Positions 17,301 through 52,372 of a stretch of 64,000 nucleotides of DNA are shown piece by piece. The notes under the pieces are model-generated. The model saw only the letters and a program-made list of their open reading frames with translations. It was not told the origin of the DNA and did no database searches. How positions within the stretch are numbered: the first letter of the stretch is position 1; each line of letters begins with the position of its first letter. Origin of the DNA: a virus. Its lineage: Duplodnaviria > Caudoviricetes. The stretch is from the IMG/VR virus record IMGVR_UViG_3300037477_000009, positions 11,514-75,513 of that record, one strand, 5' to 3'. A program made the translations under genes and the position numbers.

Positions 17301-18648
17301 ATCTATACTTCGCATTATACTTTGTATTGATCTCATTTTGTTTGTGCAAGAGTTGATTGTTCAGTGCATCGAGTTGAGCATTTGTATTTTTATACAACGC
17401 TTCCGCTTGCTCTTTACTCGTTACAAGTTTTGCCGCTTGCTGGTAATCTGATTTTATTTTACTGGCCGTATCGGTTAATGTTTGATGAAATGCTGTGCCT
17501 TCCGCATTCGCTTGCTTGGCGAGTTCAGTAGATACAACATTGGCTTTTATTACCGCCTTCTGTCTTATTTCCTCACCTTCTTTAAATCCTGCATTGTACT
17601 CCGCATCACGCTCTTCTTCCATCGTCTTTCCATAGGTCTTAGTGTATATCTCATCAAATTTTTTATTAACCTCTGGCTGAATAATTTTAAACGCAACTGT
17701 TGCCATTGCTTCATTATACAGAAGTGTCTTATATGTTCCTTCATCACTCAGTCCATATTTCTTGGCTTGCGCTTTTGCGTATTCACTTATCTTGAATTCA
17801 TCAGGCACTCTATGAACTCCTTCTGCGATCCTTGTATACGCATTGAAATATTCTCCAATCGGCTCAAGGTCTTTTTTCACTGTTTCGTGAACAGCCTCTC
17901 TTGCATCATCTGCCTTCTTTACTTTCGCAGCATCCTTCGCTACTCGTTCAGCCTTACGTCTCTGCTGCTCCTGTATGTATGCGTTCCTGTCAACCTTGAT
18001 TGAACTTCCAAAACCTGCGCCTCCATCCGGAGGTAAATTTGTCTCTCCTTTGGAAACAGAAATATATTTATCAGTTTGTTTCTGCGCCCATTTTATATTG
18101 CGATCATAATCGATCACACCCTGTTCACCGCTAGTTATATTTCCATCTACATCACGCTCCGGTGTGAGTCCTTCCATCTGCGCTTTCTCATACTGCGCTG
18201 GCTTAAGATCAATTTCTTCTTTTGGTTGCACTACTGGTTTGGTAGGCATACTCACCATCTTACCTGATGGAGATGGTTGCTGCTTACCCGAAAGAATAGT
18301 AGTCATATAATCATGCTCAAACGGATCAGTTGTTGTTGCCAACTGTGGTTGCGCAACTTGTGCAGGTGCTTTTGTTTTTTGCGCTGGCACTACTGCTGGT
18401 GTTGCTATTGGTGGCTGTGTCTCGGCAGGTGGTTTTGGTGTGACATTGTTATTCATCCAATCCTTCCCCATCTTTCTTTCAACAGCACGATCAAGAGTAT
18501 ATCCCTGATCGCTCACCAGTGCATTCACAACTTTCAATCGCTTCAATGCTTCGCCATCGCCTTTGAGTTGTGTATACTTTTTTAGCAGCACACCATCATC
18601 TGCGCCTTTATTCATCTCTGCCAACAATTTTTCTAACCAGTCATTCAT
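5380..18648 (-). CDS. Giant (4422 aa) polyvalent virion/ejection protein: two zincin HExxH peptidase domains, ADP-ribosyltransferase-like domain, GNAT domain, LPD-type domain
   Basis: HEGAH (13954-13968); HEFRH (11968-11982); YLYHET...GLQP...TYV...LLRFP ART-like segment; TLSRIEVPKSDRGTGVGT...FYKRFGF GNAT motif; FYSPLEQ...FLEEVQSDW LPD-like segment; E/K/T-rich linker near 14510-14680. Confidence 0.8.
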   Translation of the reverse strand: MNDWLEKLLAEMNKGADDGVLLKKYTQLKGDGEALKRLKVVNALVSDQGYTLDRAVERKMGKDWMNNNVTPKPPAETQPPIATPAVVPAQKTKAPAQVAQPQLATTTDPFEHDYMTTILSGKQQPSPSGKMVSMPTKPVVQPKEEIDLKPAQYEKAQMEGLTPERDVDGNITSGEQGVIDYDRNIKWAQKQTDKYISVSKGETNLPPDGGAGFGSSIKVDRNAYIQEQQRRKAERVAKDAAKVKKADDAREAVHETVKKDLEPIGEYFNAYTRIAEGVHRVPDEFKISEYAKAQAKKYGLSDEGTYKTLLYNEAMATVAFKIIQPEVNKKFDEIYTKTYGKTMEEERDAEYNAGFKEGEEIRQKAVIKANVVSTELAKQANAEGTAFHQTLTDTASKIKSDYQQAAKLVTSKEQAEALYKNTNAQLDALNNQLLHKQNEINTKYNAKYRLQAAQIEKVGRAELAEAQKKYKFQPSPELQAKIQKVYGQALKDVDTGGKDFRDALDSVAYNPSLNLFRQTAKSMAGVVRSWSSNLNFDTGVVAADYFANSIQTGRTELNSWRDYLDLNKLAKATGNIAGFMLPSMAATAAVTFATGGMGAPAALTAVAGGLTAWMVETGDMAVRMRDDIFAESGGDALKANRAGKRTFDSQVNLMWAYMLEGAPFLKAEQIANISARAARLTTGSLGKRLFWGGIEELVGEFPQEFHQDVFEQAIRNDQPYQEGYKLMTWDRAEHTLMNIAPMFLMGSGGHLMTHMREEAETEKQVKTFMLKNDFKNVAPGQRDQFVFDIMQRRGKSFAEAYVAHLFGGGVINQEEAESMAATLKHSEQLITNGKKYGLTPGQQKVYASMAFQKQDALRQAAAQTDPGLKQAAEEKAKEIGDNMVKFVKEGKGDYVVLTYPSGEQYVLSVSESEAALQNPKFLDEYKKGNFQLHTFGKRGKSQEILEQTDKELKEARAARKAAREKGSEVITRLPMPIPNKDEKEQGVTPEMLAAKRDKELQDAFDFDSYYEDLNSDSKWKVKQAQEFLANPKKFFENNVKFAKETLLHDPGNEMAKQALANSEAKLEKWNEINSKYPAPKTQAAPAQQATAPGAKTKVGQVWYDPTHKVSDTTQGVVDRVNNAEYINEHELKAAENELYDALEKNPNAAHLIEPLIEKIQNYEFTTTTKTGKVTEKVPTGRTNKTKIKVEPALQQATGSRVTVTLPNGTKATGVLKVEDGHYFVIDGKGNKVAAVGEKAINDRDLKLPDGDESPVTLDENGNVKSVTVQTRDGKLITIENPELALDLAIKMHVDAMGEIADGAFNEVYDEVEREVEMEVPNPIVEKPAPATETEKEKESEKETEKEKAPETEKETEKETEKKPEPQKEKDKETEKESESGKVKEISPAQIRSEILQKPTLKEALAEAETYADTDPSGKMTIEEAEKEIREKWQKPETETEKESAPMAGDEWLKPPGTNKTQPSVTFSGKDIAKLRKAAEKHGGVFGGFLDGVASIIKAWSKRMPNLTVTAHYSQASYTDGVVNQADGTKEESLSQGFYISKDGTNQIHINLTKATSETIFHEGAHPLLTALTKDSPEIIKGMYEDVVKMLDDVPGIEEAIRHGLKYEDQGEAKVHEETVVQFLALVGNREINLDKLSKSTVNKIKDLINRIIGMTGLKFRLPTNIEFSENDGIYEIAQKFSDAIHNGRQIAFAPALLGSNGKPRGKFSIDNVHDPAHGLTYELAKDSEEFAQLKKDGFVTEDKTLSNFASKTAVLTMPDHAFTGRLLKNGEVLMEGSGGIFYVIKFHPEGNFWAATTESAAAQFANLLNAQMKLSKKRGESENGTVRMALVSATTHKVLNSSAGSTGMLRILTSKAFDEKMHLSEKQVVTSISRALNQLRDDRKAAGKRLAEAGDKKYDGRTSDEGLVKAIKEPKNLPVIPASTPLEEMHTIMESWYDLNVSTFPERTEVNDYIFDQIAEAVTDEEAALQMVAFFEEVGDTKLKSGGLSATKLREGFAAVLNEPLLRNTESQQVYAVLELDSPVEHIKIPGQHDSYEWVIRGTDKNAKVRLHILQDRLNWKAHTVDLETNEIVKRKDFMKVFPTISNSKVIRFADHIDSDAKYEGQEEDDAKKEAKMTKKEKEAKAKFSLSSKPATLKQLGVKEGDTATDFIDKLIAHDGEYTDMLKMIKADPNFNIIRLDAYADLEKVPGGEYGGLYHPLGGKKGGLLQVQDIGDSYYNGMHEFRHFLTIDSAAAEKAKGTTAYNALQDMYEYIAAKKGKPGFLHRSDLNQGLDNFSEFMAELNINPKFREYASDVFADNLDDIRKTSKAIRDSKATSFVDLMRDLFNAMFGWLSKQKESGVEYDKSKPIIENAAKLAAELFSSTQQAKPKFSKGDQAAMEKAGDYLYHETQKEHIGSITETGLQPTSLGQSLVDDEGMISSMVIGRDGEYVDVTELSEDELNELGIPIEDVSGRTYVMSEEPKSSKYGDVLLRFPSSEVSGTEADVDDFIRETINPAKIEIKTSEGWKPLVESKGKYSKGESPSEFSKSLEAEHGIIVDLIGSLDKGDLTLSRIEVPKSDRGTGVGTAAMQDITEYADENNKRIVATPSTDFGGTSVARLTEFYKRFGFVENKGKNKDFSTKESMYREPVSQAKFSKGEAAPGKSIMADVVNGFYSPLEQTLLESKVDKQPVKHWMEKLGNKEEAKWTGLTAWLSAQQGSVTRDEIRKFLKENPITIKEKELSDLEMPSVQNEREALAAFDAGFTLIDDDGDAINSRLQIETGAINYPASINDTDTNTHYSQYQLPGEKEDYKEILVTLPVKPSLTNEEGTRMQDLLNIPTTRRTVAEDKELKALMEKEEEGDKLQYRPPHFRGEPNLVLHLRMSTRTDANGKKILFLEEVQSDWAQSGRKEGFLKPKVKKTAEEKAAINEKIEELWKAERKAEGVVNKMMREIRETGKVTNIASELKAGNKELQVAHDKMYQTRDRRLAFVNQLREDEKPTSQIVPAPYVTETSHWVKLALKIALKEAVKQGVDKLAWTTGTQQFNRWGSEEIHWNTRMKPKGYKIKVKEGVEAPRSARGTRHRDLGWYDREVTESDIKRIAAEWKIKPEDIEVSPAPGEWTVAINEQTDADAFEGNEDALRTNRLEEEGIRITTRDELFEAVDRNLSRSHNTDELNKLTDRIWKRMQTEDEGTSLPRKEGMEGFYGVPAEGKPGMLGGAASKLVGQETGTTEIQLGGKLNVYETAPDGYGRNWVIAKMNGQVQGRFKSKAEAMDAMRTVYNNNSRQHSINITADVIAQVQSGQAKFSKGGGVRDAVLQQKLNDIRAKVKGQLQGTGASNAKKVDAVKEEIHKEITAMLKDAEDRKVFTGVVKANLLKTVVSKLNDVRSPYSMLKYTDYLEKVLDDVEYDKHLQGANAYKKKIRSTIKNRKDRNSATTNQVIQDFLRISPSNVEDIYQYNDLAARILGVAEGVKVSRSGVKNPFLNISLAEITNYTNEQLKIADKAAAARLADMYADLVTAGKINPTLMSAAEMQKVIDSLEKGTDAEIKQAQEDLEDDWFNKMNALRSVAEYAQMGVQEYSNSNPDLTKEEQEIMNRYLRMDLEKLSATELAKVIDAMNNIAVNENFVGSGELSIISSVNDAIKETQKHWKDNKVSFGDLSGRFLRNVKHFASTQLIHEFITRSSKAAAFFQRMSGVFDINSGHAKSKVLTINTVKEYEKLKKGMKNADSAMNRYRRGVYADVMNNFGGTEEEVLAEFERRKGWIEESAKRLRESEPQFKKDILEGIVLQRVVDTLFKDAKTPADVTANMKRIEPHNIKLVEFWQNAFMKRKHLVQENTELYNNRIWENVENYTATSLKGYNGEKGVEENRDRDDFAAAYMSKGVRSQPAGTKIAKVRLQNLPKGNVLNLDFDNVQSKLFYETNYDVETSKAIVHFKKFIANPEVADLFGGRYNRNVVLDGVKKMVQLQRGRMPMVDEQGSSIAKTLNAAQAKATRMSLGSVLQWIWQYVSVGAGTQFNMGTDVGLFYKALLMSNKLELFDQFGIGLRGGTEAGYKRKVDTGEIDRSVLAGNAMSVYKAAIRLGEKMHDATMKSLVKADVSIARTSWLAYYMQSLKKQGVNLDTVNWQTEHLNANQEAAAYAEQMVSRSQNVNDSSNLGSILRDSGNGWKKIMTNIMLPFSSFNVNMRVRMTNDMQKILHWEHPKEAALSLAATVAEQLTFNGIKIFVTGWLSTLAANAVAKMLGYKDEDDDDDEVTITIAGKEVKTTKKMKKWMSSTFSDFFFGGMGTLTQTGFQEGMNAIYGLIATEQYASGTIKEFPNLYFSPKLSDKDVWDDAGLYAILPNKIVDVLSNGRMITTGKIDEVTKGGLHPETERVELTDEEKHMHQLIFWIDTLGWFGVGDSYINQFNNKLKIIAHEKDLKKHGGDEFTITTKAER

Positions 18649-41641: not shown

Positions 41642-42076
41642 TTGATCATGTACATACCAGTGCAAGACTTCAGATATCTTAAACGATTTTGTTACTTCGA
41701 TACTACACTGGAGAAGTATAATCGCAAAGCCATGATGCGTCTCAATCGCACTCAGGTATTACTGCTGTATACACTCTATGATCTCACTCGTAAGAAACCA
41801 ACAGCAACAGCACCTTTCATTGGTAAATACTTTCTTGTATCAAAGAGCAAACGCAGTGCAAGATTTCATACAGTCAAACAATTGCACATACTGGAAGTAG
41901 CAGAACTTGTGTTGCATATCACTGATAAAAATGGATTCTATCATTGGTCATTAACACTGCTTGGTCACAATACACTCAAAGCAATTGAACGCATGATTCG
42001 CAAACAAGAAAATGTTTCAAAGATCAGTTCTCGATCCTCTGTCTTAACTCAATTATTCTCCTCTCAAAACAAGTGA
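41642..42076 (+). CDS. Hypothetical protein, possible winged-HTH
   Basis: 144 aa; LTLLGHNTL wing-like C-terminus. Confidence 0.45.
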   Translation: MIMYIPVQDFRYLKRFCYFDTTLEKYNRKAMMRLNRTQVLLLYTLYDLTRKKPTATAPFIGKYFLVSKSKRSARFHTVKQLHILEVAELVLHITDKNGFYHWSLTLLGHNTLKAIERMIRKQENVSKISSRSSVLTQLFSSQNK

Positions 42077-42428
42077 TAATACCTGGCTTTGTGTGTATTT
42101 GATTGTGACATTGCCAACACAGTATTGCGATGTTATCTGGATCATATCTTAGCAATGGAAATTTTGATTTCTCCAATAGATGATGGAAGTTGAATAACTG
42201 TGGCTCATGGATAATATTCTCACATCCTACTGCCTGACATTTGTTGCTCGTTCTATTGAGCCAGACATCCATGTAAAAATCAATATCATCTTGCTTCCTC
42301 TCACGAAACATATGTTGCTTCACTCTTACAGATGCTGATGTTGCACATCGTTTGCATCTCCCATGAGAGAAGATCAGTCTCATCTTGTGACATTCAATGC
42401 ACTCTTTTGGTTTCTGTCTGATAGCCAT
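42024..42428 (-). CDS. HNH endonuclease (NinG/Rap-like)
   Basis: CIECH...CKRC, CQAVGC...FHHLLEKSKFPLLRYDPDNIAILCWQCHNQIH. Confidence 0.8.
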   Translation of the reverse strand: MAIRQKPKECIECHKMRLIFSHGRCKRCATSASVRVKQHMFRERKQDDIDFYMDVWLNRTSNKCQAVGCENIIHEPQLFNFHHLLEKSKFPLLRYDPDNIAILCWQCHNQIHTKPGIITCFERRIIELRQRIEN

Positions 42429-42584
42429 TTTACCAATGAGAATTGATTGTTATAGCAAGATATAATTTATATCCATTCATTGATCAAAACGTGAGGTCGA
42501 TAGTTTTTTCCATAGAATTATGTGGATAACTTTTTGGATCTTTTTTTTGCTACGTTAAAGAATTGGATATCAAATATATCTGAG

Positions 42585-43023
42585 GCATACAGTCCACAGT
42601 AAAAACTTACACTGGCGGTTGATGCTATGTGGTATACAGTCCACAGCTATCTTTGTGGGAGTTCTTTGATAGGCCAGTTGGAAGCCAGATACCACGACAA
42701 AACGGTCAAACTCGCTCTGAGACTACGTTTCAGACGATCCTCACTCCGAAAATTGTCAGGTAGATCACACTTGATCACTGGTTGTACAACGGAAACAGCG
42801 CAAGACAGACTTGAAGAATACTCTAACGGAGATTCGCACAGACAGCAGCCACCACGTTTCATTTCTCATAGGAGAAAGTAAGCAAACGGATTCTGCAAAG
42901 ACTAAATGTTCACGATGTAATATCGTTCACTGTGTACGAAAATTTTTCACTGACACTGCGCCCTTCATTCACCAGCTTTCGATTTATCACTGCTGTGTGT
43001 GGTCTTGAGGCCAGATGATTGTA
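42585..43023 (+). ncRNA. Candidate long structured non-coding leader RNA
   Basis: Multiple hairpins, 13-bp direct repeat ATACAGTCCACAG, ends at the hammerhead; only weak ORFs. Confidence 0.4.
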
Positions 43024-43073
43024 TCGTACAATGGTAATCGCCATTGCTGATGAGACTATACAAGTCGAAACGG
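43024..43073 (+). ncRNA. Type III hammerhead ribozyme
   Basis: TCGTA | CAATGG-TAATCG-CCATTG | CTGATGA | GACT-ATACA-AGTC | GAAA-CGG: intact core, 6-bp stem I, 4-bp stem II, 4-bp stem III; GUA cleavage after 43028. Confidence 0.88.
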
Positions 43074-43095
43074 AAAAAAAATAAACTATACAGAT

Positions 43096-44088
43096 ATGTC
43101 AATGGAATTAATCAACATCGCAATTGCAAATGATGCAGATTTTTGGGTGAGTATGTCAGGTGGAAAAGATAGTGAAGCAACAGCACTCACACTGAGAGCA
43201 AATAACATCAGGATCGCTGGTGGAGTTCATGCTGATCTCGGTAGACTGGAGCATAAAGAATCAGGTGATCAATGTCAGCAGTTAGCTGCTGAGTTAGGCA
43301 TTCCACTGGTAGTAGTGAGAAGAACAGATGGTGCAGATATGTTAACTCACTGGAGAAACAGAATGCTGAAGTTGAAATCACAGGGTAAGATCAACGTAGG
43401 TGGTAAGACTACCCCATTCTGGAGTTCATCTGGCGCACGTTATTGCACCAGTGATATGAAGCGTGAGCCGATCAACAAACACTTCCGTAGTGTAAAAAAT
43501 AATCTCATCGTTTCGTGTGAGGGTATCAGAGCGGATGAAGGGGATGCGAGAAAATTCAAATCACCAATAGCAGTTAGATGGGCAATCACATCTGAGTATT
43601 ACATGAAGTTCGCTGGAGTTGCAGTAAGAGTGAAGCAGATAAAAAAATTGAATGATTCAGCAAAAGCAATGAAGTCATCCAATCCACTCAAAGCAAAAAA
43701 ATATAGCCAGATCGCAGTGTTGGAAAGAGAAGTGCTGGAGATTGTTCTACCAGTATACAATCCAAAAAAGCGTTTGGCTATTACATGGTTTCCAATTTTC
43801 AATTTCACTACTGATGAAGTGTGGGCAACAAGAGGACACACCAGTGCAGATTTGCAAGCAGCAAGAATTGAATTCAAGCAGACTGGTAAAGCAAATGACT
43901 GGAGATTTCATCCAGCATATGCGAAGGGAAACAACAGGGTATCATGTGTGTTCTGTGTGATGGGTTGCAGTAATGATCTCGCAGTAGGCGCAAAACATTA
44001 TCCTGAGTTACTCAAGGAAATGATTGCACTGGAGAAAGAAGGTAACGCAACATTCAAGGATGGTGAATCACTGGAGAGATATTTATAA
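43096..44088 (+). CDS. PAPS-reductase-like PP-loop (ANH) protein with Fe-S Cys motifs
   Basis: VSMSGGKDS, ARYCTSDMK, EGIRADE, PIFNFTTDEVW, HPAY...RVSCVFC. Confidence 0.85.
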   Translation: MSMELINIAIANDADFWVSMSGGKDSEATALTLRANNIRIAGGVHADLGRLEHKESGDQCQQLAAELGIPLVVVRRTDGADMLTHWRNRMLKLKSQGKINVGGKTTPFWSSSGARYCTSDMKREPINKHFRSVKNNLIVSCEGIRADEGDARKFKSPIAVRWAITSEYYMKFAGVAVRVKQIKKLNDSAKAMKSSNPLKAKKYSQIAVLEREVLEIVLPVYNPKKRLAITWFPIFNFTTDEVWATRGHTSADLQAARIEFKQTGKANDWRFHPAYAKGNNRVSCVFCVMGCSNDLAVGAKHYPELLKEMIALEKEGNATFKDGESLERYL

Positions 44089-44095
44089 GTTCAAT

Positions 44096-44135
44096 GGGTA
44101 GCAGTGTATGCTGTGAGATTCAAATCTAACTACCC
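44096..44135 (+). ncRNA. tRNA-like T-loop element 1
   Basis: GGGTAG/CTACCC; CAG-TGTATG-CTG; AGA-TTCAAA-TCT. Confidence 0.7.
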
Positions 44136-44167
44136 ACTAATATTTAATCAACAAAAAAAACAGACAA

Positions 44168-44647
44168 ATGAACACAAAAATTGAATGCCCAAAATGTGGC
44201 CGCACAAATTGTACAACAATTGATAACGAGCCATTGAGCCATGACAAAGAGTGGTTAACCAAAAATGGTATGCAGTTCGATAACCAGTTGTATGTATTCT
44301 TCCGGTGCAATGACTGCGACAATAGGTTTCGTGGTACACTGGAGATAATCACACAGAGTGAACACAAGGCACTCACTGGTCTACAGAGCAAGTTTCCAAA
44401 TGGCTTTGCTTCATGGATAGAAACGCATCACGAAGTTGTGGCCATTATAACCAACGAACTTAGAAAAAATGAAAGAGAAGGATCGGTTATCTGGAAGAGA
44501 CAAATCGAACAAGGCACTGGTGGTATGTTTGAGTTAGCAGAAGAGTGGACAGATGAATTTGAAAAGAAGAACATAGATAGAGAATGGGATGGTGAATTCT
44601 TTGAAGAGGTTGAAGATTTCTGTATCGCAAAAGACAAAGCAAATTAA
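44168..44647 (+). CDS. Zinc-ribbon-containing hypothetical protein
   Basis: CPKCG...CNDC. Confidence 0.7.
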   Translation: MNTKIECPKCGRTNCTTIDNEPLSHDKEWLTKNGMQFDNQLYVFFRCNDCDNRFRGTLEIITQSEHKALTGLQSKFPNGFASWIETHHEVVAIITNELRKNEREGSVIWKRQIEQGTGGMFELAEEWTDEFEKKNIDREWDGEFFEEVEDFCIAKDKAN

Positions 44648-44653
44648 TCACAC

Positions 44654-44697
44654 TGGCTGCATCGCTATAGGCACACCATCGAATGGTAATGCAGCCA
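44654..44697 (+). ncRNA. tRNA-like T-loop element 2
   Basis: TGGCTGCAT/ATGCAGCCA; ACCA-TCGAA-TGGT. Confidence 0.7.
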
Positions 44698-44730
44698 CTA
44701 ACAAATTTCAAAAACAAAAAAGCAAACACA

Positions 44731-44970
44731 ATGAAAAGTTTAATCGCAATCGCAGCAGTAATCATGTTATCATCATTCACCAATGGTGATCATTGCAAGG
44801 GTAAAAAGAAAGATGGCACACCATGTCAATCTACAATCGTAAGCAAAGCCACTGGCTATTGCAATGCACACAATCCAAACGCAAAGAAGTGTGTGTTCAT
44901 CAAGAAAGATGGAGAGCGTTGTAAGATGACTGTAAAGGCCACAGAGACACTTTGCAGATTCCACAAGTAA
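44731..44970 (+). CDS. Small secreted protein with two C-x9-C...C-x2-H repeats
   Basis: Signal peptide MKSLIAIAAVIMLSSF; CKGKKKDGTPC...CNAH and CVFIKKDGERC...CRFH. Confidence 0.7.
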   Translation: MKSLIAIAAVIMLSSFTNGDHCKGKKKDGTPCQSTIVSKATGYCNAHNPNAKKCVFIKKDGERCKMTVKATETLCRFHK

Positions 44971-44977
44971 ATGGTAA

Positions 44978-45038
44978 GGGTAGCAGAATAGGATCGCCAG
45001 TGCGATCTTATTGCTGTGAGATTCGATTCTAACTACCC
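44978..45038 (+). ncRNA. tRNA-like T-loop element 3
   Basis: GGGTAG/CTACCC; long arm AATAGGATCGC-CAGT-GCGATCTTATT; AGA-TTCGAT-TCT. Confidence 0.75.
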
Positions 45039-45072
45039 ACTAACAATTATTCAATCTTAAAATTTAATCGAC

Positions 45073-45810
45073 ATGACAACAGATCAGTTATTGCAAGCAG
45101 CATTTTATGCACTCAATGAAATTCCAAACAAAGAGATCAGTGGTGAATTCAAAAACAGTTATGCACTGGCAGCAGCACTTGGTAATCATCTTAGGAAAGA
45201 AGATGATGCATCGTATCTCCTGACGTTCACATTGCGTACCACATACAAGGATGGAGTGAAGGACAATGATTACACTGAAATATTCTGTGATGAATCAGAA
45301 GGTCGCACACCAAAGCAACAGGCACATGAAAGGATGGAAATGTTACGCAGCCAGTATGATTCCATGTATAGCAAGACAGAGATGTACACTTGGAACATCG
45401 CTAAGATCACAAGCACCAGCGAACATTACAACTTAGGTAATGAGCCAGCACCAGTGCAACCAGCAGATGATCTCGTTACACTGGAGAGAGGCGCAGAGAT
45501 AAAGCAAGAGCAACCATCACTTACGTTTGAAGTAAGATCATCACATGGCACACTCACTGCTGCTAAATCAAATGGTGCAGTTGTGAATTGTGTGCTGAAT
45601 GATAACGAAGATGAAGATGGACACTCACTACTTGATATCACCAAGTTCGATGTGAAAGAGTTTCGCACCTATCATAACATCGGCATCGATGCAATGCCTG
45701 ATAGTATCGACATACTCGATCTTGGTTACTGGTATGATAACGGAATTGGATTATACGAATCACCGGATGGTGACTGGAGAGAGATGATGATCAACATCGC
45801 AGATGACTAA
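45073..45810 (+). CDS. Acidic hypothetical protein
   Basis: 245 aa. Confidence 0.7.
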   Translation: MTTDQLLQAAFYALNEIPNKEISGEFKNSYALAAALGNHLRKEDDASYLLTFTLRTTYKDGVKDNDYTEIFCDESEGRTPKQQAHERMEMLRSQYDSMYSKTEMYTWNIAKITSTSEHYNLGNEPAPVQPADDLVTLERGAEIKQEQPSLTFEVRSSHGTLTAAKSNGAVVNCVLNDNEDEDGHSLLDITKFDVKEFRTYHNIGIDAMPDSIDILDLGYWYDNGIGLYESPDGDWREMMINIADD

Positions 45811-45819
45811 ATGATCTCA

Positions 45820-45862
45820 GGGTAGCAGAACGAAAGTTGCTGTGGATCGAATCCAACTACCC
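45820..45862 (+). ncRNA. tRNA-like T-loop element 4
   Basis: GGGTAG/CTACCC; CAGAAC-GAAA-GTTGCTG (GNRA loop); GG-ATCGAAT-CC. Confidence 0.75.
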
Positions 45863-45895
45863 ACTAAATATTTAATCAACAAAAACAAACGACAA

Positions 45896-46435
45896 ATGAC
45901 AGTTAATCCAAGTCTCACTCCAGAGACTTTAAAAGCAACAGATGAAATGATAGATGCAGCCAATGCGCTGATCTTAGCAACAGCCTATGCCAGTGTAGTA
46001 ACTCCAGTGGTAGAAAAAATCCACCAAGATGTGCTAAACGAAAATCGTTATGCATGGGATATGAAAATTGTATTCTGTGGCCGTAGATCGGAGAGTGACA
46101 AAGTAAACTTCCTGAAAGAGAATGGTGAGTATTGCAGCAAGCCATCACTTGTCCAACTTACAGGCAGCAAGAACTTCAATGACTACTTCGTTCAGGTAGC
46201 AAAAAAACTTGCACTGGCTGGCTTTGAAGTGAATGATGATGTATGCCCAATGCTGGAAGCAATAGATTTAGAATGGAAGGCGAAGAAGGTGCTTATCGAT
46301 ACCATGCAACCAACTACTGGTTTCAAGTACGATGACTTCTTCAAGACAACGAAGTGGAAAGAACATATCGAGAGGTATGTTGATCTACTCTTGAGGTGGC
46401 TTGCACCACATCTCAGGAACACACTGGTAAAATAA
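45896..46435 (+). CDS. Hypothetical protein
   Basis: Start reassigned to MTVNPS after the element leader. Confidence 0.7.
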   Translation: MTVNPSLTPETLKATDEMIDAANALILATAYASVVTPVVEKIHQDVLNENRYAWDMKIVFCGRRSESDKVNFLKENGEYCSKPSLVQLTGSKNFNDYFVQVAKKLALAGFEVNDDVCPMLEAIDLEWKAKKVLIDTMQPTTGFKYDDFFKTTKWKEHIERYVDLLLRWLAPHLRNTLVK

Positions 46436-46462
46436 TTTAATCAATCTTAAAATTTAATCGAC

Positions 46463-46765
46463 ATGAACAAAGTAGCATTTAAAGAAACAGACATTTTTTG
46501 GCAACCGGAAATCACCGAAGATGGTGATGGGGTAATCGGCCATGAAGATGAAGAGTATTTATTTTCATTTGAAGTATGGAGTACGTTAAGAAATCTTTTA
46601 AAGGATTATCCTAACTGTGAACCAGTGGAACACGAAAGAAGTGAGTTTGATATAGAGTATCCAAATTTTGTAGATGAGGTCGCATTCAATTCGCCTCCAG
46701 ACAGATCAACAGAAGATGAGTTGATCATCTTGGAGTTGTTATGGAAGTGCGAGATGGAATCATAA
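46463..46765 (+). CDS. Acidic hypothetical protein
   Basis: 100 aa; leader TCAATCTTAAAATTTAATCGACATG identical to that of 45073. Confidence 0.65.
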   Translation: MNKVAFKETDIFWQPEITEDGDGVIGHEDEEYLFSFEVWSTLRNLLKDYPNCEPVEHERSEFDIEYPNFVDEVAFNSPPDRSTEDELIILELLWKCEMES

Positions 46766-46771
46766 GATCAC

Positions 46772-46818
46772 TGGACTGGCTGGTTAATTCGCAGTAGCAT
46801 TTCAATTGCACCAGTCCA
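46772..46818 (+). ncRNA. tRNA-like T-loop element 5
   Basis: TGGACTGG/CCAGTCCA; CTG..CAG arm (swapped relative to CAG..CTG); GCA-TTTCAAT-TGC. Confidence 0.7.
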
Positions 46819-46851
46819 CTAAACAATTCAATCATTTAAAATTTAATCGAC

Positions 46852-47220
46852 ATGACAACAAAGCAGACAATCGACATCACCCCAAGATGGGCAGAGTTAT
46901 TACCAGCAATGCTTCAATTGCACAGGCAGTACAATAAGAAGCGTAAGCCTACACTGGAAGATGCAAAGTGGTATGAAACATTGCTTGCAGAATTCAAGAC
47001 GATGGCATTCGCTGCTGACAAGTGGAATGCACATGAGAAACTCAACACTGGTGAGGTAAAGACAGATCATTACAACACACTGGTGAAGATCACTGGTGGT
47101 AGTTATGATAGCATCGGCAGATACTTCTATGCGCACATCGACCAATTGAATCGTGCATGGATCAACATACCAGCAGGAGTGTATGATGCAAACAAATTTG
47201 AGATCGTAGCAGGTCAATAA
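46852..47220 (+). CDS. Hypothetical protein
   Basis: IDITPRWAELLPAM...MAFAADKWN. Confidence 0.7.
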   Translation: MTTKQTIDITPRWAELLPAMLQLHRQYNKKRKPTLEDAKWYETLLAEFKTMAFAADKWNAHEKLNTGEVKTDHYNTLVKITGGSYDSIGRYFYAHIDQLNRAWINIPAGVYDANKFEIVAGQ

Positions 47221-47228
47221 GATCACAC

Positions 47229-47275
47229 TGGACTGTTCAGGTTAACTCGCTGTGGCACTCGATGCAAGCAGTCCA
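47229..47275 (+). ncRNA. tRNA-like T-loop element 6
   Basis: TGGACTG/CAGTCCA; CAG..CTG arm; GCA-CTCGA-TGC. Confidence 0.7.
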
Positions 47276-47307
47276 CGAAATATTTAATCACAAAAATTAA
47301 ATGACAA

Positions 47308-48036
47308 ATGCCGACACAAAAAGAAATGGAAACTTATCCAGACACTTGCGATAAGTTAATCGTATCGCTTTACGATTCATCAGAAGCATGGCCACAGCCA
47401 TATGCTGATGCAGGGTATCCTGTAATGTTTTGGGATATGAATCACGAAGGTGATATCATTCACCACTGGTCAACATTCATGGACAACATTGAAGAAGCAA
47501 TCGAAGAAGGTTATTATCCGTATGGCCTACTGGCAGCACCACCATGCGATCATTTCGCTTCCAGTGGTGCAAGGTGGTGGAAAGAGAAAGATGCCAGTAC
47601 AGAGCGTGTAGGCCACAAGGACATTGCCGAAAACAATGTTGACTTGGGAGTGCTGCTTGCTGAGATACCGATGCTGATATTGGATCAGGTAGAACAACAC
47701 TTCGGTTATGAATTCAAGTGGTGGGCATTAGAGAATCCTGTTGGCCGTATTGAGAAAATGTGTCCAGACTTAAAGCCATACAGAAAGATGATGTTCGATC
47801 CATGTGACTATGGCGATCCATATACCAAGAAAACTATTCTATGGGGAACATTCAATCCCGATCTTCCCAAGACACCAGTAGAGCCAGAGTACGTTACCTA
47901 TGTGAAGAAGGATGGATCGCTCACAAGGTTTGCACCACAGTTTGGTCGCACTGGTGGTAAGTCTGCAAAGACAAAAGCGATCAGGAGTAAAACACCAAGC
48001 GGATTTGCCAAAGCGTTTTTCCAAGCAAATCAATAG
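47308..48036 (+). CDS. DNA cytosine-C5 methyltransferase-like protein
   Basis: Catalytic LAAPPCDHF, ALENPVG, FDPCDYGDPYTKKT; degenerate SAM motif (SLYDSSEAW). Confidence 0.75.
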   Translation: MPTQKEMETYPDTCDKLIVSLYDSSEAWPQPYADAGYPVMFWDMNHEGDIIHHWSTFMDNIEEAIEEGYYPYGLLAAPPCDHFASSGARWWKEKDASTERVGHKDIAENNVDLGVLLAEIPMLILDQVEQHFGYEFKWWALENPVGRIEKMCPDLKPYRKMMFDPCDYGDPYTKKTILWGTFNPDLPKTPVEPEYVTYVKKDGSLTRFAPQFGRTGGKSAKTKAIRSKTPSGFAKAFFQANQ

Positions 48037-48052
48037 GCCAGGTAGATGATGA

Positions 48053-48093
48053 TGGACTGCGATCAGGTCGTGGAGTTCAAACTCGACAGTCCA
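48053..48093 (+). ncRNA. tRNA-like T-loop element 7
   Basis: TGGACTG/CAGTCCA; CGAT-CAG-GTCG; GAG-TTCAAA-CTC. Confidence 0.7.
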
Positions 48094-48123
48094 CTAAATA
48101 TTTAATCAACAAACGACAAGACA

Positions 48124-48993
48124 ATGGACTTAACTATTTTTTCATTTGGCGCAGGGCAAGAATCAACTTACCTGTTGCATAAGCTGGTCAGCGATCCAGC
48201 GTTCAGAGCCAAGCACATCAAAGGCCACTTGCTGGTTGTAGGATCAGACACTGGCGATGAGCATCCGCATACTTATCAGAATGTGGAGAAGCTAAAGTTG
48301 TTCTGCAAGTACAACGATGTTGAATTCTATTGGGTAACTCCTGACATGGGATATCACACGAACACATGGCAGAGTCTCACTGGTCAGTACAAACGCAACA
48401 GTTCAATTGGCTCTGCTGCATTCAAACAGACTTGCACTGATAACCTGAAGGTGAAAGTGGTTGACAACTTTGTTGAAGGCTGGTTGAAGAAACAACTTGG
48501 CAAGCCTGATGCAAAGCGTAAGACGATCTTCAAAGGGATCACTGACATCAGGCTCATACTTGGATTTGCGAAAGGTGAGGAATCAAGGACAACCAGTGGC
48601 AACAAATTTGATGCAGTGTGGAAGAAGAAGTCAATGGTGCGTTACTTCCCACTCATTGAAGATGGGATCACTCGTCAGGATTGTATTGACTACAATACGA
48701 TCAACATCCCATACACTGTGTGGCCATCCAATTGTATGCGCTGTTTCTATCAGGCAGATCAGGAAGTGTTGTGGTTGCACAGAAACTTTCCTGAGAAGTT
48801 CCTTGAGTGGTACACGATGGAGCAAGCGAAGCTGACCAAGTACGCTGGTGCTGATAAGAACTATGGAGTGTATGGCAAGGTCTTACTGATGCAGAAGCTG
48901 GAGAAGGCCACTGATCTGTATGGTCACTGGAGTGATGAGCAACTTGATGAATACAAGTTCTCACATGGCCACTGTATAAAGTCAAAATATTGA
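48124..48993 (+). CDS. Second PAPS-reductase-like PP-loop (ANH) protein
   Basis: FSFGAGQES, SDTGDEHPHTY, CTDNLKV, GFAKGEESR, FPLIEDGITRQDC, SNCMRCFY. Confidence 0.75.
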   Translation: MDLTIFSFGAGQESTYLLHKLVSDPAFRAKHIKGHLLVVGSDTGDEHPHTYQNVEKLKLFCKYNDVEFYWVTPDMGYHTNTWQSLTGQYKRNSSIGSAAFKQTCTDNLKVKVVDNFVEGWLKKQLGKPDAKRKTIFKGITDIRLILGFAKGEESRTTSGNKFDAVWKKKSMVRYFPLIEDGITRQDCIDYNTINIPYTVWPSNCMRCFYQADQEVLWLHRNFPEKFLEWYTMEQAKLTKYAGADKNYGVYGKVLLMQKLEKATDLYGHWSDEQLDEYKFSHGHCIKSKY

Positions 48994-49016
48994 TCACTAT
49001 AAAAACTAAAAGACAA

Positions 49017-49301
49017 ATGACAAAGCGAATTCCCATCCCAAGAGTTGATCTTAAAAGAAAGCTGGTCTGCGTATACTCTACGCAGCTTTCCATGTTTGAG
49101 GTTTGCCAGATGACAAACAAAGGCACAGTCTCAAAGATGTTCAAGCCACAGGTTGCATTCACTGATGACGTACACAAAGCCTTCAAGCGATTCACTGTGC
49201 CATTCGCACGTTTCAGAATCGTGGCTGGAGTGAAGCGTGATCAGTGTAAGACATGGAATGAATGGATCGAAAGAGTATGGCAAAAAGCAAATCAGAAATA
49301 G
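49017..49301 (+). CDS. Hypothetical protein
   Basis: Start reassigned to MTKRIP. Confidence 0.55.
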   Translation: MTKRIPIPRVDLKRKLVCVYSTQLSMFEVCQMTNKGTVSKMFKPQVAFTDDVHKAFKRFTVPFARFRIVAGVKRDQCKTWNEWIERVWQKANQK

Positions 49302-49327
49302 TATTTTTAAATTTTAAAACTATACAA

Positions 49328-49600
49328 ATGGCAGCGAAACATTATCAGCTTCTTTCACTTCCACAGATCACTTCAGCTAATATCGATAAGAGGGTTGCAG
49401 ACAAGCAAGAAGAAATCAGGTTGAAGTTACCGGACATCTTCACCCATTTACCATACGCTGAAGAAGTAGGCAAGGATTTGCTTTACTTAGTGGCATTAGA
49501 AAATGCAAGGACACTAATGAACACAATTGATTACAGAAATTATGAGAAGGCAGGTAAGCCAGTGGATTACGAAACCTGGCTACAACAGAATGCTGAATGA
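49328..49600 (+). CDS. Hypothetical protein
   Basis: Start MAAKHY after AAACTATACA leader. Confidence 0.6.
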   Translation: MAAKHYQLLSLPQITSANIDKRVADKQEEIRLKLPDIFTHLPYAEEVGKDLLYLVALENARTLMNTIDYRNYEKAGKPVDYETWLQQNAE

Positions 49601-49610
49601 TCACAGGAGT

Positions 49611-49651
49611 GGCTGCGAATTAACTTGTCGTGGGTTTCGATACCGACAGCC
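49611..49651 (+). ncRNA. tRNA-like T-loop element 8
   Basis: GGCTG/CAGCC; CGA..TCG arm; GGT-TTCGAT-ACC. Confidence 0.7.
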
Positions 49652-49687
49652 GTCTAAATATTTAATCACAAAAAAACAAATGACAAA

Positions 49688-49912
49688 ATGGAAAAAGAAA
49701 AGAAAGTCTCAGTAGGGCAACAGTTGGTTATTAACCACACTGACAAAGCGATCCTTGCGTATGAAGCATGGAGAAGAGCCACACAGATAGAGTGGTCGCA
49801 TAAGTACCAGTGCTATAAAAGATTTTTCGGTAAAGCGTTTACCAAAAATCCAAAGACACCACAACAATTGTATAACATCTACAAAAAAGAAAGCAATGGC
49901 AAAATCAGTTAA
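49688..49912 (+). CDS. Hypothetical protein
   Basis: 74 aa. Confidence 0.6.
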   Translation: MEKEKKVSVGQQLVINHTDKAILAYEAWRRATQIEWSHKYQCYKRFFGKAFTKNPKTPQQLYNIYKKESNGKIS

Positions 49913-50195
49913 AGGTCTTGAGGACTATGGAATAAAAAATCTTGAAGATTTTCTTGACAGGCTGGAGTTATTTATGTTTCATGGCGGCACTGATATCTTA
50001 AACGCTATGAGTAAAACGCACCTAACAGAATATATGTGCAGGAAGTATTTGAATGAAGCTGTTGAAAAAGGATTCTATAAAAAGTCATGGCTGCGTGGTG
50101 ATGCAAATAAAAAGAACACTCCAATGTCAATGCGGTATCTACACAAATATTATTACACTAAAATTAAAGACCATGCAACCGATCAGGGAACTTAA
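49896..50195 (+). CDS. Hypothetical protein, possible winged-HTH
   Basis: 99 aa. Confidence 0.55.
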   Translation: MAKSVKGLEDYGIKNLEDFLDRLELFMFHGGTDILNAMSKTHLTEYMCRKYLNEAVEKGFYKKSWLRGDANKKNTPMSMRYLHKYYYTKIKDHATDQGT

Positions 50196-50439
50196 TGAAA
50201 GAGAAAACATCGTTCTTGAATACTGTCAGGAACACGCACAGGATATCATCTGGATATACAAGGTTGTTGAGTATGCAACCGAGCAAGGGATCGCATTAAA
50301 AGAAAGCAAGGCTGGTGCGATCCTGTTGCAGTTCTCCAGATGTGGATGGCTTAACAGGTTACCACGATCATCCAGAGGATGGGGATTAGGATGGGATGTG
50401 CAAGCGTACACTGTCAAGCCTATTGTAATTCCGAAATGA
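50173..50439 (+). CDS. Hypothetical protein, possible winged-HTH
   Basis: Start reassigned to MQPIRE. Confidence 0.55.
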   Translation: MQPIRELNERENIVLEYCQEHAQDIIWIYKVVEYATEQGIALKESKAGAILLQFSRCGWLNRLPRSSRGWGLGWDVQAYTVKPIVIPK

Positions 50440-50445
50440 TTCACA

Positions 50446-50487
50446 GGACTGGTTGCTTCAGGCAAGGCATCGAATGCCAGCCAGTCC
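50446..50487 (+). ncRNA. tRNA-like T-loop element 9
   Basis: GGACTGG/CCAGTCC; TTGC-TTCAG-GCAA; GGCA-TCGAA-TGCC. Confidence 0.72.
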
Positions 50488-50519
50488 ACTAATATTTAAT
50501 CACAAAAACTAAAAGACAA

Positions 50520-51035
50520 ATGAACAAAGAAACAAGGGATCGAGTTGCTAAACTGCAAAGCGATCTCAATGTAGCGCACAGGAATCTTGGTAACCTTCAA
50601 GAAGAACTCTTCCTTATCATAGAGGTAGAACGGGAAGCGGAAGCTAGTGACCAAATTTTTGAGATACTACAAAGCGCATCAAAATTAGTTATGAACGCTG
50701 GCACTGACCTTGAGGTATCGGTCAGTGTTCTTGGTGGCATCGTTAATCACCAAGAGCAACCGAAAGTTCTCAAGACATCGTTCAACGATCAAGAGAAGAA
50801 GGAATTGCATGGAGGCTTTCATGGTAATATTCGTTTTGATTTACTCAACGACCAAAACGAAAGAGTGCTATCATGTTACAGAGCAACGATACCAGGTGGC
50901 CTTGATTTTATGAATGCGAAGATGGAAGAACACAAAAGCACATGGTTTACTGTTCATATAATGAAAAAGACTGGCGGTAAGTTCAGGTCTGTTGCTCATT
51001 TAGAAACAGAAGCAGGTACAATATTCCAACATTAA
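50520..51035 (+). CDS. Hypothetical protein (coiled-coil N-terminus)
   Basis: 171 aa. Confidence 0.65.
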   Translation: MNKETRDRVAKLQSDLNVAHRNLGNLQEELFLIIEVEREAEASDQIFEILQSASKLVMNAGTDLEVSVSVLGGIVNHQEQPKVLKTSFNDQEKKELHGGFHGNIRFDLLNDQNERVLSCYRATIPGGLDFMNAKMEEHKSTWFTVHIMKKTGGKFRSVAHLETEAGTIFQH

Positions 51036-51046
51036 AAAAACATACA

Positions 51047-51394
51047 ATGAAAAAAGAATTCAAGTATGAGGCCATCATGTATTTCACTGGCAAGCGGAAG
51101 TCCTTCACTGATTATATCGACATCTTTGCAGCCAATGATTCAGTAGCACTCGCAACGGCTACTGAATACCTGTTAGAGACAGAAGGTGCAAGTGCTATTC
51201 ACTTCCGTAAGGTCGGCAACAAGAAATGGAGAGCCGTTAACCAAAGTGAAGTGATGTCGCATGACTTCAGAGACATGAAGTATTACATCGATTACGTTAC
51301 CGAATGCATCGAAAACAGGAGAAAGCCAATGACGTTTGAGAAGTACAATGGATTACTCGATGGTGAGAATTGCATAATGGGTACTATCATGTAA
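51047..51394 (+). CDS. Hypothetical protein
   Basis: 115 aa. Confidence 0.65.
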   Translation: MKKEFKYEAIMYFTGKRKSFTDYIDIFAANDSVALATATEYLLETEGASAIHFRKVGNKKWRAVNQSEVMSHDFRDMKYYIDYVTECIENRRKPMTFEKYNGLLDGENCIMGTIM

Positions 51395-51396
51395 CC

Positions 51397-51438
51397 GGAA
51401 GTGAAGTGGTGCGCTGAGTTCGATTCTCAGCCACTTCC
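51397..51438 (+). ncRNA. tRNA-like element 10 (acceptor + T-arm minihelix)
   Basis: GAAGTGG/CCACTTC 7-bp stem, 4-nt linker, CTGAG-TTCGATT-CTCAG canonical T-arm. Confidence 0.72.
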
Positions 51439-51463
51439 CAAGAATTCTATATCTTAGTGACTA

Positions 51464-52372
51464 ATGAGATCGAAGTCACTTAACCTACCAAAGCGAATTG
51501 CAATCGCAAGAAAATTCCTTAAAGGATCGTCAGTCAGAGAACTTGCAAAAGAATACAGCCTGGCTGAACAAACCATTGCTGGCTACTTGCGCAATCACAT
51601 TGATAAAAACGGAAGAGTGATCTCTGCGCCACCAGCGATGTCGAAGGAATTGCAGCTACCAGGTGAAAAGTGGAAGGTAGTACCAGTGCCATCCAAGAAC
51701 AAGATAGAAGCCAGTAATCTTGGCCGTATCAAGAGCCACGCATATGGTAGGGAGAGGATACTTGATGGCAATATAAAGTTCGGTTACAGATCGATCTGCT
51801 ACCGAGTAAAGAATAATAAACGAAGAGATGAACTAAGCCATATGCTTGTTGCAAAAGCCTGGCTTGAGCCAAGACCATCAACAAGGCACGTTATCGTTCA
51901 TCTGGATCACAACAGGTGGGATAACAGTCCAGCGAATCTGAAGTGGATGATCAAGCGTGATGCACAACGTCACGCACGACATTCGCCTTACATGGAGATA
52001 CTACGCAAACGTGCAAGAGCGATGCCTACCGAACAGGCGAACAAAGCCAGGTATGGTAAGCTGTCTCGTAAGGAGGTCATCAGCATCAAGCAGAAGATAC
52101 ACAATGGCAGAAGGATAATTGATATCGCAAAGGAATACGGGATCGCAGAGATGACTGTATCACGCATTCATCGGGGTATCATATGGGCAGATGTTCTTCC
52201 GCAATTAACCAGGAAGAAAAAGGAGTTGAAAATAGTGCCAGTGGAAACAAGGATCAAGATCATCAATGCACTTCGTGCTGGTATGCAGGGAAAGGTAGCT
52301 GCTGCACTGTATGGCTTCGATCCTACCACCATCTCCCGTATTAAAAAATCGTTACAACATGGAAACGATTAA
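51464..52372 (+). CDS. NUMOD4/HNH homing-endonuclease-like protein with several HTH repeats
   Basis: EKWKVVP...EASNLGRIKS (NUMOD4), HMLVAKAW...HLDHNRWDNSPANLKW (HNH), HTH repeats. Confidence 0.8.
   Translation: MRSKSLNLPKRIAIARKFLKGSSVRELAKEYSLAEQTIAGYLRNHIDKNGRVISAPPAMSKELQLPGEKWKVVPVPSKNKIEASNLGRIKSHAYGRERILDGNIKFGYRSICYRVKNNKRRDELSHMLVAKAWLEPRPSTRHVIVHLDHNRWDNSPANLKWMIKRDAQRHARHSPYMEILRKRARAMPTEQANKARYGKLSRKEVISIKQKIHNGRRIIDIAKEYGIAEMTVSRIHRGIIWADVLPQLTRKKKELKIVPVETRIKIINALRAGMQGKVAAALYGFDPTTISRIKKSLQHGND

Follow-up and report, generated by a model that had tools for sequence, protein, structure and literature searches.

A compact type III hammerhead ribozyme motif 22 nt upstream of a PAPS-reductase-like gene in a putatively temperate soil phage

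The stretch of viral DNA analysed in this study (64,000 nucleotides, hereafter the window) carries on its plus strand a predicted type III hammerhead ribozyme that is convincing by sequence and is an ordinary member of a phage class known since 2011, when such ribozymes were reported ahead of phage genes (Perreault et al., 2011; PMC3088659). The hammerhead fold is very probably genuine and kept by selection. Taken as a whole, the arrangement is best explained by a co-transcriptional cut after A43028 which would free the mRNA of a PAPS-reductase-like gene from a long leader, a reading to which we give a probability of roughly two in three. In it, we infer that the site is transcribed, that its RNA is cleaved and that the phage draws a benefit from the cleavage. 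The window copy adds to the known examples a clean single-gene case, in which a ribozyme heads a gene block in an uncultured, apparently temperate soil phage of Bacteroidota type.

The window is part of a complete virus contig of 75.5 kb obtained from soil. The phage encodes a portal protein and a terminase, a primase with a BT4734-like domain and an integrase with Arm-DNA-bind_5 and SAM_5 domains, and its gene leaders are devoid of Shine-Dalgarno sequences; we infer that the phage is temperate and that its host belongs to the Bacteroidota. The 330-aa protein encoded just behind the ribozyme matched Pfam family PF01507 (E = 4e-7) and PHROG 424 (E = 3.6e-29), and 599 homologues of it were found, the named ones coming from Chitinophaga. 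Its start codon is the ATG at 43096, and all ORFs from this position to approximately 52400 are located on the plus strand. Given that the HNH endonuclease gene is on the minus strand and all the ORFs that follow are on the plus strand, the ribozyme belongs to the sense strand and stands at the head of the gene block, outside any credible ORF. The preliminary description of this DNA had announced that the genes downstream share their sense strand with a complete type III hammerhead, and this was borne out by our reading of the sequence. That the plus-strand block is expressed early is a guess. The coordinates of the locus are provided in Table 1. Elsewhere in the window, an ORF of 4422 aa (5380-18648, minus strand) without any Pfam match adjoins the terminase and portal genes; it may encode a giant virion or ejection protein.

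Table 1. Features of the predicted hammerhead ribozyme and of its surroundings (window coordinates).
Feature	Position	Strand	Remarks
HNH endonuclease gene	42024-42428	minus	nearest upstream gene, divergent
Non-coding stretch, presumed 5' leader cut off	42429-43023	+	between HNH gene and ribozyme
Stem III, 5' strand UCGU	43024-43027	+	positions 16.4-16.1; from sequence
H17 = A	43028	+	family rule; alignment to RF00008 and R1
Stem I hairpin	43029-43046	+	6 bp, 6-nt loop starting with U; from sequence
Catalytic core strand CUGAUGA (C3-A9)	43047-43053	+	from sequence
Stem II hairpin	43054-43066	+	4 bp, G10.1-C11.1, 5-nt loop with final A; contains ACTATACA
Core G12 A13 A14	43067-43069	+	from sequence; R1 alignment
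Stem III, 3' strand (A15.1 to 15.4)	43070-43073	+	from sequence; R1 alignment
A-rich leader, 22 nt, no Shine-Dalgarno	43074-43095	+	second ACTATACA box at 43085-43092, 3 nt before ATG
PAPS-reductase-family (PP-loop) gene, 330 aa	43096-44088	+	first gene of plus-strand block

The motif is organized in three helices, of which stems I and II end in loops and stem III is open (6-7, 4 and 4 pairs, respectively, according to the descriptor). Stem I is built from 43029-43034 and 43041-43046, which form six Watson-Crick pairs around the loop 43035-43040, with U43035-G43040 as a possible seventh pair. The strands of stem II are 43054-43057 and 43063-43066 (four pairs, loop 43058-43062), and the four pairs of stem III are A15.1-U16.1 (A43070-U43027), C-G, G-C and a terminal G43073-U43024. 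The core C3 U4 G5 A6 N7 G8 A9 lies between stems I and II, and G12 A13 A14 lies between stems II and III, next to the A15.1-U16.1 pair. In addition, H17 is not G (A43028), N1.1 and N2.1 are paired (C43029-G43046), and stem II is closed at the core by G10.1-C11.1 (G43054-C43066). By the family rule, the scissile bond is predicted 3' of H17, that is, at A43028/C43029. U43035, at the 5' end of loop 1, and A43062, at the 3' end of loop 2, are the right nucleotides for a loop-loop tertiary contact; a contact motif of this kind, with a 5' U in loop 1 and a 3' A in loop 2, is reported for natural hammerheads (PMC2632901). The type III hammerhead which the preliminary description had placed at 43024-43073 of the plus strand was thus found to be exact to the base and in every detail, and the two loop features to which it had drawn attention match the published motif and most of the phage class.

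The motif was sought with a descriptor that demanded the core, GAAA, U16.1, an H17 other than G and three helices. It gave a single match on both strands of the 64-kb window (128 kb of sequence), while 300 dinucleotide shuffles of the window yielded three loose matches (0.01 per window). At its gathering thresholds, Rfam gave no match in the window. A check with the Hammerhead_3 model, as had been proposed beforehand, succeeded only in part: at relaxed thresholds RF00008 aligned with the motif end-to-end, but the score of 30.2 bits is below the gathering threshold of 48.5 bits. The corresponding E-value was 2.5e-4 in a search of 801 nt and 5.7e-6 across the whole 75.5-kb virus record, in which this was the sole match. 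The other members of the phage class reached 32-42 bits with RF00008 or were unreported. As they miss the Rfam cut-off too, failing it says little, and the cut-off is too strict for the compact phage subclass. By contrast with RF00008, the model of this class (R1, see below) recognized the window copy over its full length at 43022-43075, as its sole match in the window, with 49.1 bits and an E-value of 2.6e-11, which is rough because the calibration was short.

These values bear directly on whether the motif could be a chance resemblance to the hammerhead consensus, devoid of fold and function. The score under the gathering threshold would agree with such a resemblance, as would the weak matches, with E up to 10, that RF00008 gave in 7 of the 14 control genomes. 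Nevertheless, the E-value was 5.7e-6 per genome with RF00008 and 2.6e-11 with R1, none of the 300 shuffled windows contained an equal motif (stems of at least 6, 4 and 4 pairs), and both the loop features and the placement are typical of the phage class, all of which makes chance very improbable.

The class used for comparison was obtained by searching IMG/VR with the string of stem II and core, which was present in at least 119 contigs when, by a rough estimate, approximately one match was expected by chance. Among the matches listed, most of the contigs carried type I hammerheads, and the descriptor picked out some 40 different compact type III hammerheads, of which many were not the copy that had pulled in their locus. 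Thirty-seven compact type III hammerheads made up the alignment (A2) from which the covariance model R1 was built, the window sequence being excluded. Since these members were picked for pairing and are non-orthologous, their 100% pairing exists by construction and is not evidence of covariation. Throughout the 37 members the core strand was invariant except at N7, and so was G10.1-C11.1. When the window copy was added (38 members), H17 was A in 10, the first base of loop 1 was U in 30 and the last base of loop 2 was A in 28, the loop bases being counted for stems I and II of 6 and 4 bp, respectively; the window copy agrees with the majority at both loop positions. A stem III of only 4 bp was present in 5 of the 38, the window copy included.

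The position with respect to genes was also shared. An ATG opening an ORF followed the ribozyme at 9-30 nt in 30 of the 37 class members among the matches listed (median 21), taking in each case the first ATG that opened an ORF of at least 40 codons on the same strand. At random positions of the same loci, 8.6% lay within 9-30 nt of such an ATG (binomial p ~7e-26); the 37 examples come in part from related contigs and are not fully independent, and the effect of placement is large. The spacer of 22 nt between the window copy and its ATG falls within the 9-30 nt range of the class. Two or three compact type III hammerheads per contig were seen in four IMG/VR contigs (L014, L068, L095 and L103). 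For most of these copies, the ATG located 14-29 nt further on opened an ORF of about 54-116 codons, one copy in L103 preceded an ORF of 344 codons, and a few had no ORF start that near.

Folding predictions gave ensemble pair probabilities of at least 0.98 for stem I and at least 0.93 for stem II. Stem III, with its 4 bp and terminal G-U, is the weakest part of the motif: its probability was about 0 in nearest-neighbour ensembles, and the hammerhead secondary structure lies 1.9 kcal/mol above the minimum free energy of the 50-mer. It must be considered that nearest-neighbour models omit tertiary energy, so that they can be expected to under-predict a stem III this short within a three-way junction. 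A pseudoknot in which the 5' tail pairs with loop II, complementary on paper, was discarded, given that its ensemble probability was 0.01 and that it is sterically unlikely because stems II and III stack.

No orthologous locus with the ribozyme was found in phage records, in viral and metagenome contigs, in the protein database or in bacterial genomes, and hence there is no covariation at 43024-43073. Neither blastn against phage records nor the comparison of the PAPS-reductase protein with viral contigs gave any match or homologue, and the three PAPS-reductase loci retrieved from metagenome contigs, with 40-45% identity, were all without a hammerhead. In the protein database, a relative of this protein with 97% identity is encoded on a contig that ends on the 5' side of the gene, and relatives with 48-50% identity have upstream neither a hammerhead nor a long non-coding gap; one of the latter (L126) shows a terminator and a TAnnTTTG promoter upstream of the gene. 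Look-ups of the exact protein returned the source assembly only, R1 gave 0 matches in five records of terminase relatives (31-34% identity), and no protein relative was found in bacterial genomes. A pattern match in one bacterial genome (L150) was due to chance and is not a hammerhead. The public runs containing this sequence were two DNA soil metagenomes, and no RNA run was among them. One of the two is probably the source sample, and in the other a relative approximately 94% identical was present in small contigs. Judged from these sequences, the ribozyme copy looks sporadic, as phage hammerheads generally are. In the literature, nothing was found that links hammerheads to PAPS-reductase genes.

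The 8-mer ACTATACA, which occurs both within the ribozyme and in the leader behind it, is over-represented in the window. It is present in 14 copies between 23653 and 63385, versus 1.6 expected, a count reached in none of 100 shuffles, and its sites include 29882, 30664, 37907, 38093, 38729, 43085, 49319, 53620 and 63378. In about ten of them, which lie on the strand of the gene, the sequence is AAAACTATACA and a start codon comes 0-4 nt later; these boxes head apparent transcription units, that of the integrase gene among them. Possible roles of the box are that of a promoter or transcript-start element serving near-leaderless mRNAs and that of a binding site for a regulator. The copy that coincides with stem II and loop II of the ribozyme may be a coincidence, because other class members have similar stem II strings. 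Nothing usable on the 8-mer was found in the literature, and a paper on the virion polymerase of crAss-like phages contained no promoter motif matching the box.

As regards its role, we favour the maturation of the mRNA 5' end. Transcription of the plus strand would start at some point within the 670 nt of non-coding sequence upstream, the RNA would fold once the 3' strand of stem III has been transcribed, and self-cleavage would take place between A43028 and C43029. The upstream leader would then end with a 2',3'-cyclic phosphate and, being bound by the four pairs of stem III only, should dissociate. The mRNA carrying the PAPS-reductase-like gene and those behind it would bear a 5'-hydroxyl and keep stems I and II folded at its 5' end, with the 22-nt A-rich leader remaining unstructured between the ribozyme stems and the AUG. 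By this means, translation initiation and mRNA decay would be insulated from any dependence on the long upstream RNA.

It is the precedents in the literature that lead us to favour 5'-end maturation together with insulation of the first cistron. Hammerheads flanking genes of prophages cut themselves both in vitro and in vivo (PMC3088659). In haloviruses HF1/HF2, the first early ORF begins 13 nt after the hammerhead, and the 5' end that was mapped there is no more than 3 nt away from the cleavage site (PMC3088659). The closest analogue in function is the engineered RiboJ, a type III hammerhead placed in the 5' UTR, which is reported as an insulator with which expression rose in E. coli (PMC6206723). 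Counting against the benefit stated here, a 5'-OH end may destabilise the mRNA, as in the case of glmS with RNase J1 (PMC6765202). The function of bacterial and phage hammerheads is still termed largely elusive, and one suggested role is the processing of polycistronic RNA into pieces that differ in stability or translation (PMC6765202). For the specific role of a 5'-UTR insulator of the first cistron, the chances appear to us to be about even.

Cleavage could instead serve the RNA on the other side of the cut, the ribozyme setting the 3' end (2',3'-cyclic phosphate) of a non-coding RNA spanning 42429-43028 and any effect on the mRNA being secondary. An upstream RNA, of ~440 nt, was proposed in the preliminary description, and this reading agrees with the approximately 600 nt without a credible ORF that precede the ribozyme, in which the ORFs (42429-43023) are short and implausible only and a 19-nt direct repeat is found at 42581 and 42628. 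But this stretch folds no better than its shuffles (z = -1.07 on the plus strand, +1.34 on the minus strand), and no Rfam family besides the hammerhead was recognized in it. Promoter scans upstream were likewise at chance level, with 7 sigma-70-type matches versus 6.5 expected and only weak matches to the Bacteroidota TAnnTTTG promoter, so that an upstream RNA of ~440 nt as a defined species is not supported. Moreover, the constant neighbour of the class is the downstream start codon and not an upstream RNA. We consider it rather unlikely that the cut is made for the sake of the leader.

Two further explanations involve the box in front of the ATG. According to one, the ribozyme would act as a switch in which, prior to cleavage, UGUAU (43020-43024) pairs with AUACA (43088-43092), so that cutting would free the box for translation or for a factor. 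The probability of this pairing was 0.3-0.8 in ensembles of 96-171 nt, and the box is 9-fold over-represented and found ahead of about ten start codons; yet the helix consists of only five A-U-rich pairs, it competes with stem III for U43024 and it has no comparative support, all of which leaves the switch quite improbable. According to the other, the hammerhead is real and goes unused at this locus, either as an untranscribed recent insertion or relic, or because a promoter between the ribozyme and the ATG, in the ACTATACA region, bypasses it. The ribozyme is indeed absent from all the relatives examined, the box, preceded by AT-rich sequence resembling a promoter, opens several apparent transcription units and could be where transcripts begin, and a weak sigma-70-like match at 43005-43032 would start the RNA within the ribozyme itself. 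An idle ribozyme should nonetheless decay, and here all core positions and 14 stem pairs are intact. Furthermore, only 22 nt separate the ribozyme from the ATG, the AT-rich stretch that usually precedes the other boxes is missing, and the promoter-like matches do not exceed the chance number given above; we therefore regard disuse as distinctly unlikely, and 5'-end maturation of the mRNA as the preferred reading.

Compared with the compact type III hammerheads of phages and prophages (PMC3088659; RF00008, clan CL00010), the window copy has the same core, the same topology with an open stem III, the same sizes (stem I of 6-8 bp, stem II of 4-5 bp, small loops) and the same placement, from a few to ~30 nt before the start codon. 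The former occur in gene-flanking clusters, whereas the window phage has a single copy, the other gaps of its gene block carry tRNA-like folds and not ribozymes, and its putative host is of a Shine-Dalgarno-less, Bacteroidota-like type. In HHphage (HF1/HF2, PMC3088659) the ribozyme makes the 5' end of an early polycistronic mRNA, which is the arrangement proposed here, but that ribozyme is a structural variant in a virus of halophilic archaea, without sequence kinship, and its 5' end was mapped experimentally while the one reported here is predicted. The likeness to RiboJ (PMC6206723) resides in a type III hammerhead in the 5' UTR, about 20 nt before the translation start, by which the variable RNA ahead of it is cut away while the mRNA retains the folded ribozyme at its 5' end; RiboJ differs in having been engineered from the sTRSV plant satellite RNA, in an added hairpin that exposes the Shine-Dalgarno sequence and in having been tested in E. 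coli. Finally, the type III hammerheads of viroids and satellites (RF00008 seed) have the same core, topology and loop 1/loop 2 motif (PMC2632901 for the last). They process rolling-circle multimers of circular RNAs, whereas the window copy, which scores 30 bits with that family, stands in an mRNA leader of a DNA phage.

The tRNA-like folds of the gene block deserve a description of their own. Ten intergenic, anticodon-less tRNA-like three-way junctions are distributed over 44096-51460, after almost every stop codon of the plus-strand block, each with a closing stem, a variable arm, a T-loop-like arm and an ACUA tail, and they are located 27-31 nt before the next ATG. Five of them were folded and gave z from -1.5 to -4.1. 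ARAGORN recognized no tRNA among these elements, and a search of 44000-51600 with Rfam (E up to 1) did not yield any tRNA-like family. The CAGTCCAC core of the 19-nt direct repeat upstream of the ribozyme (42581-42599 and 42628-42646, non-coding, 89% identical) is also the 3' closing strand of several of the tRNA-like elements; the repeat itself was absent from the rest of the window at up to 2 mismatches.

The similar distance to the start codon suggests that the ribozyme and the tRNA mimics do one job. On this basis a mixed RNA punctuation can be put forward tentatively, although we hold it doubtful, in which the ribozyme would set the 5' end of the first cistron and the anticodon-less tRNA mimics, cut by tRNA-processing enzymes of the host, would set those of the ~10 following cistrons, with gating by ACUAUACA in addition. 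Each message would then start with a folded RNA plus an A-rich leader of 22-31 nt, which would suit a Shine-Dalgarno-less Bacteroidota host, and through the ACUAUACA box, common to loop II and the start region, expression could be gated by one phage factor or by the cleavage itself. Should mRNA 5' ends be made by both kinds of element, the block would offer a natural side-by-side of self-cleavage versus cleavage by host enzymes.

Other hammerheads were also observed near phage genes. A pattern match to stem I in the IMG/VR contig L124 was set aside as a relative of the window copy, being an unrelated type II hammerhead that coincidentally has the same stem I. This ribozyme (L124:2048-2137), from an unrelated phage, is located about 25 nt before a start codon, and all three hammerhead topologies therefore occupy slots of this kind. 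In two other contigs (L038 and L045) an apparent tRNA 3' end, made up of T arm and acceptor strand, was present ~45 nt upstream of the pattern match and stopped about 8 nt before the hammerhead core strand, an adjacency of tRNA and hammerhead in phages.
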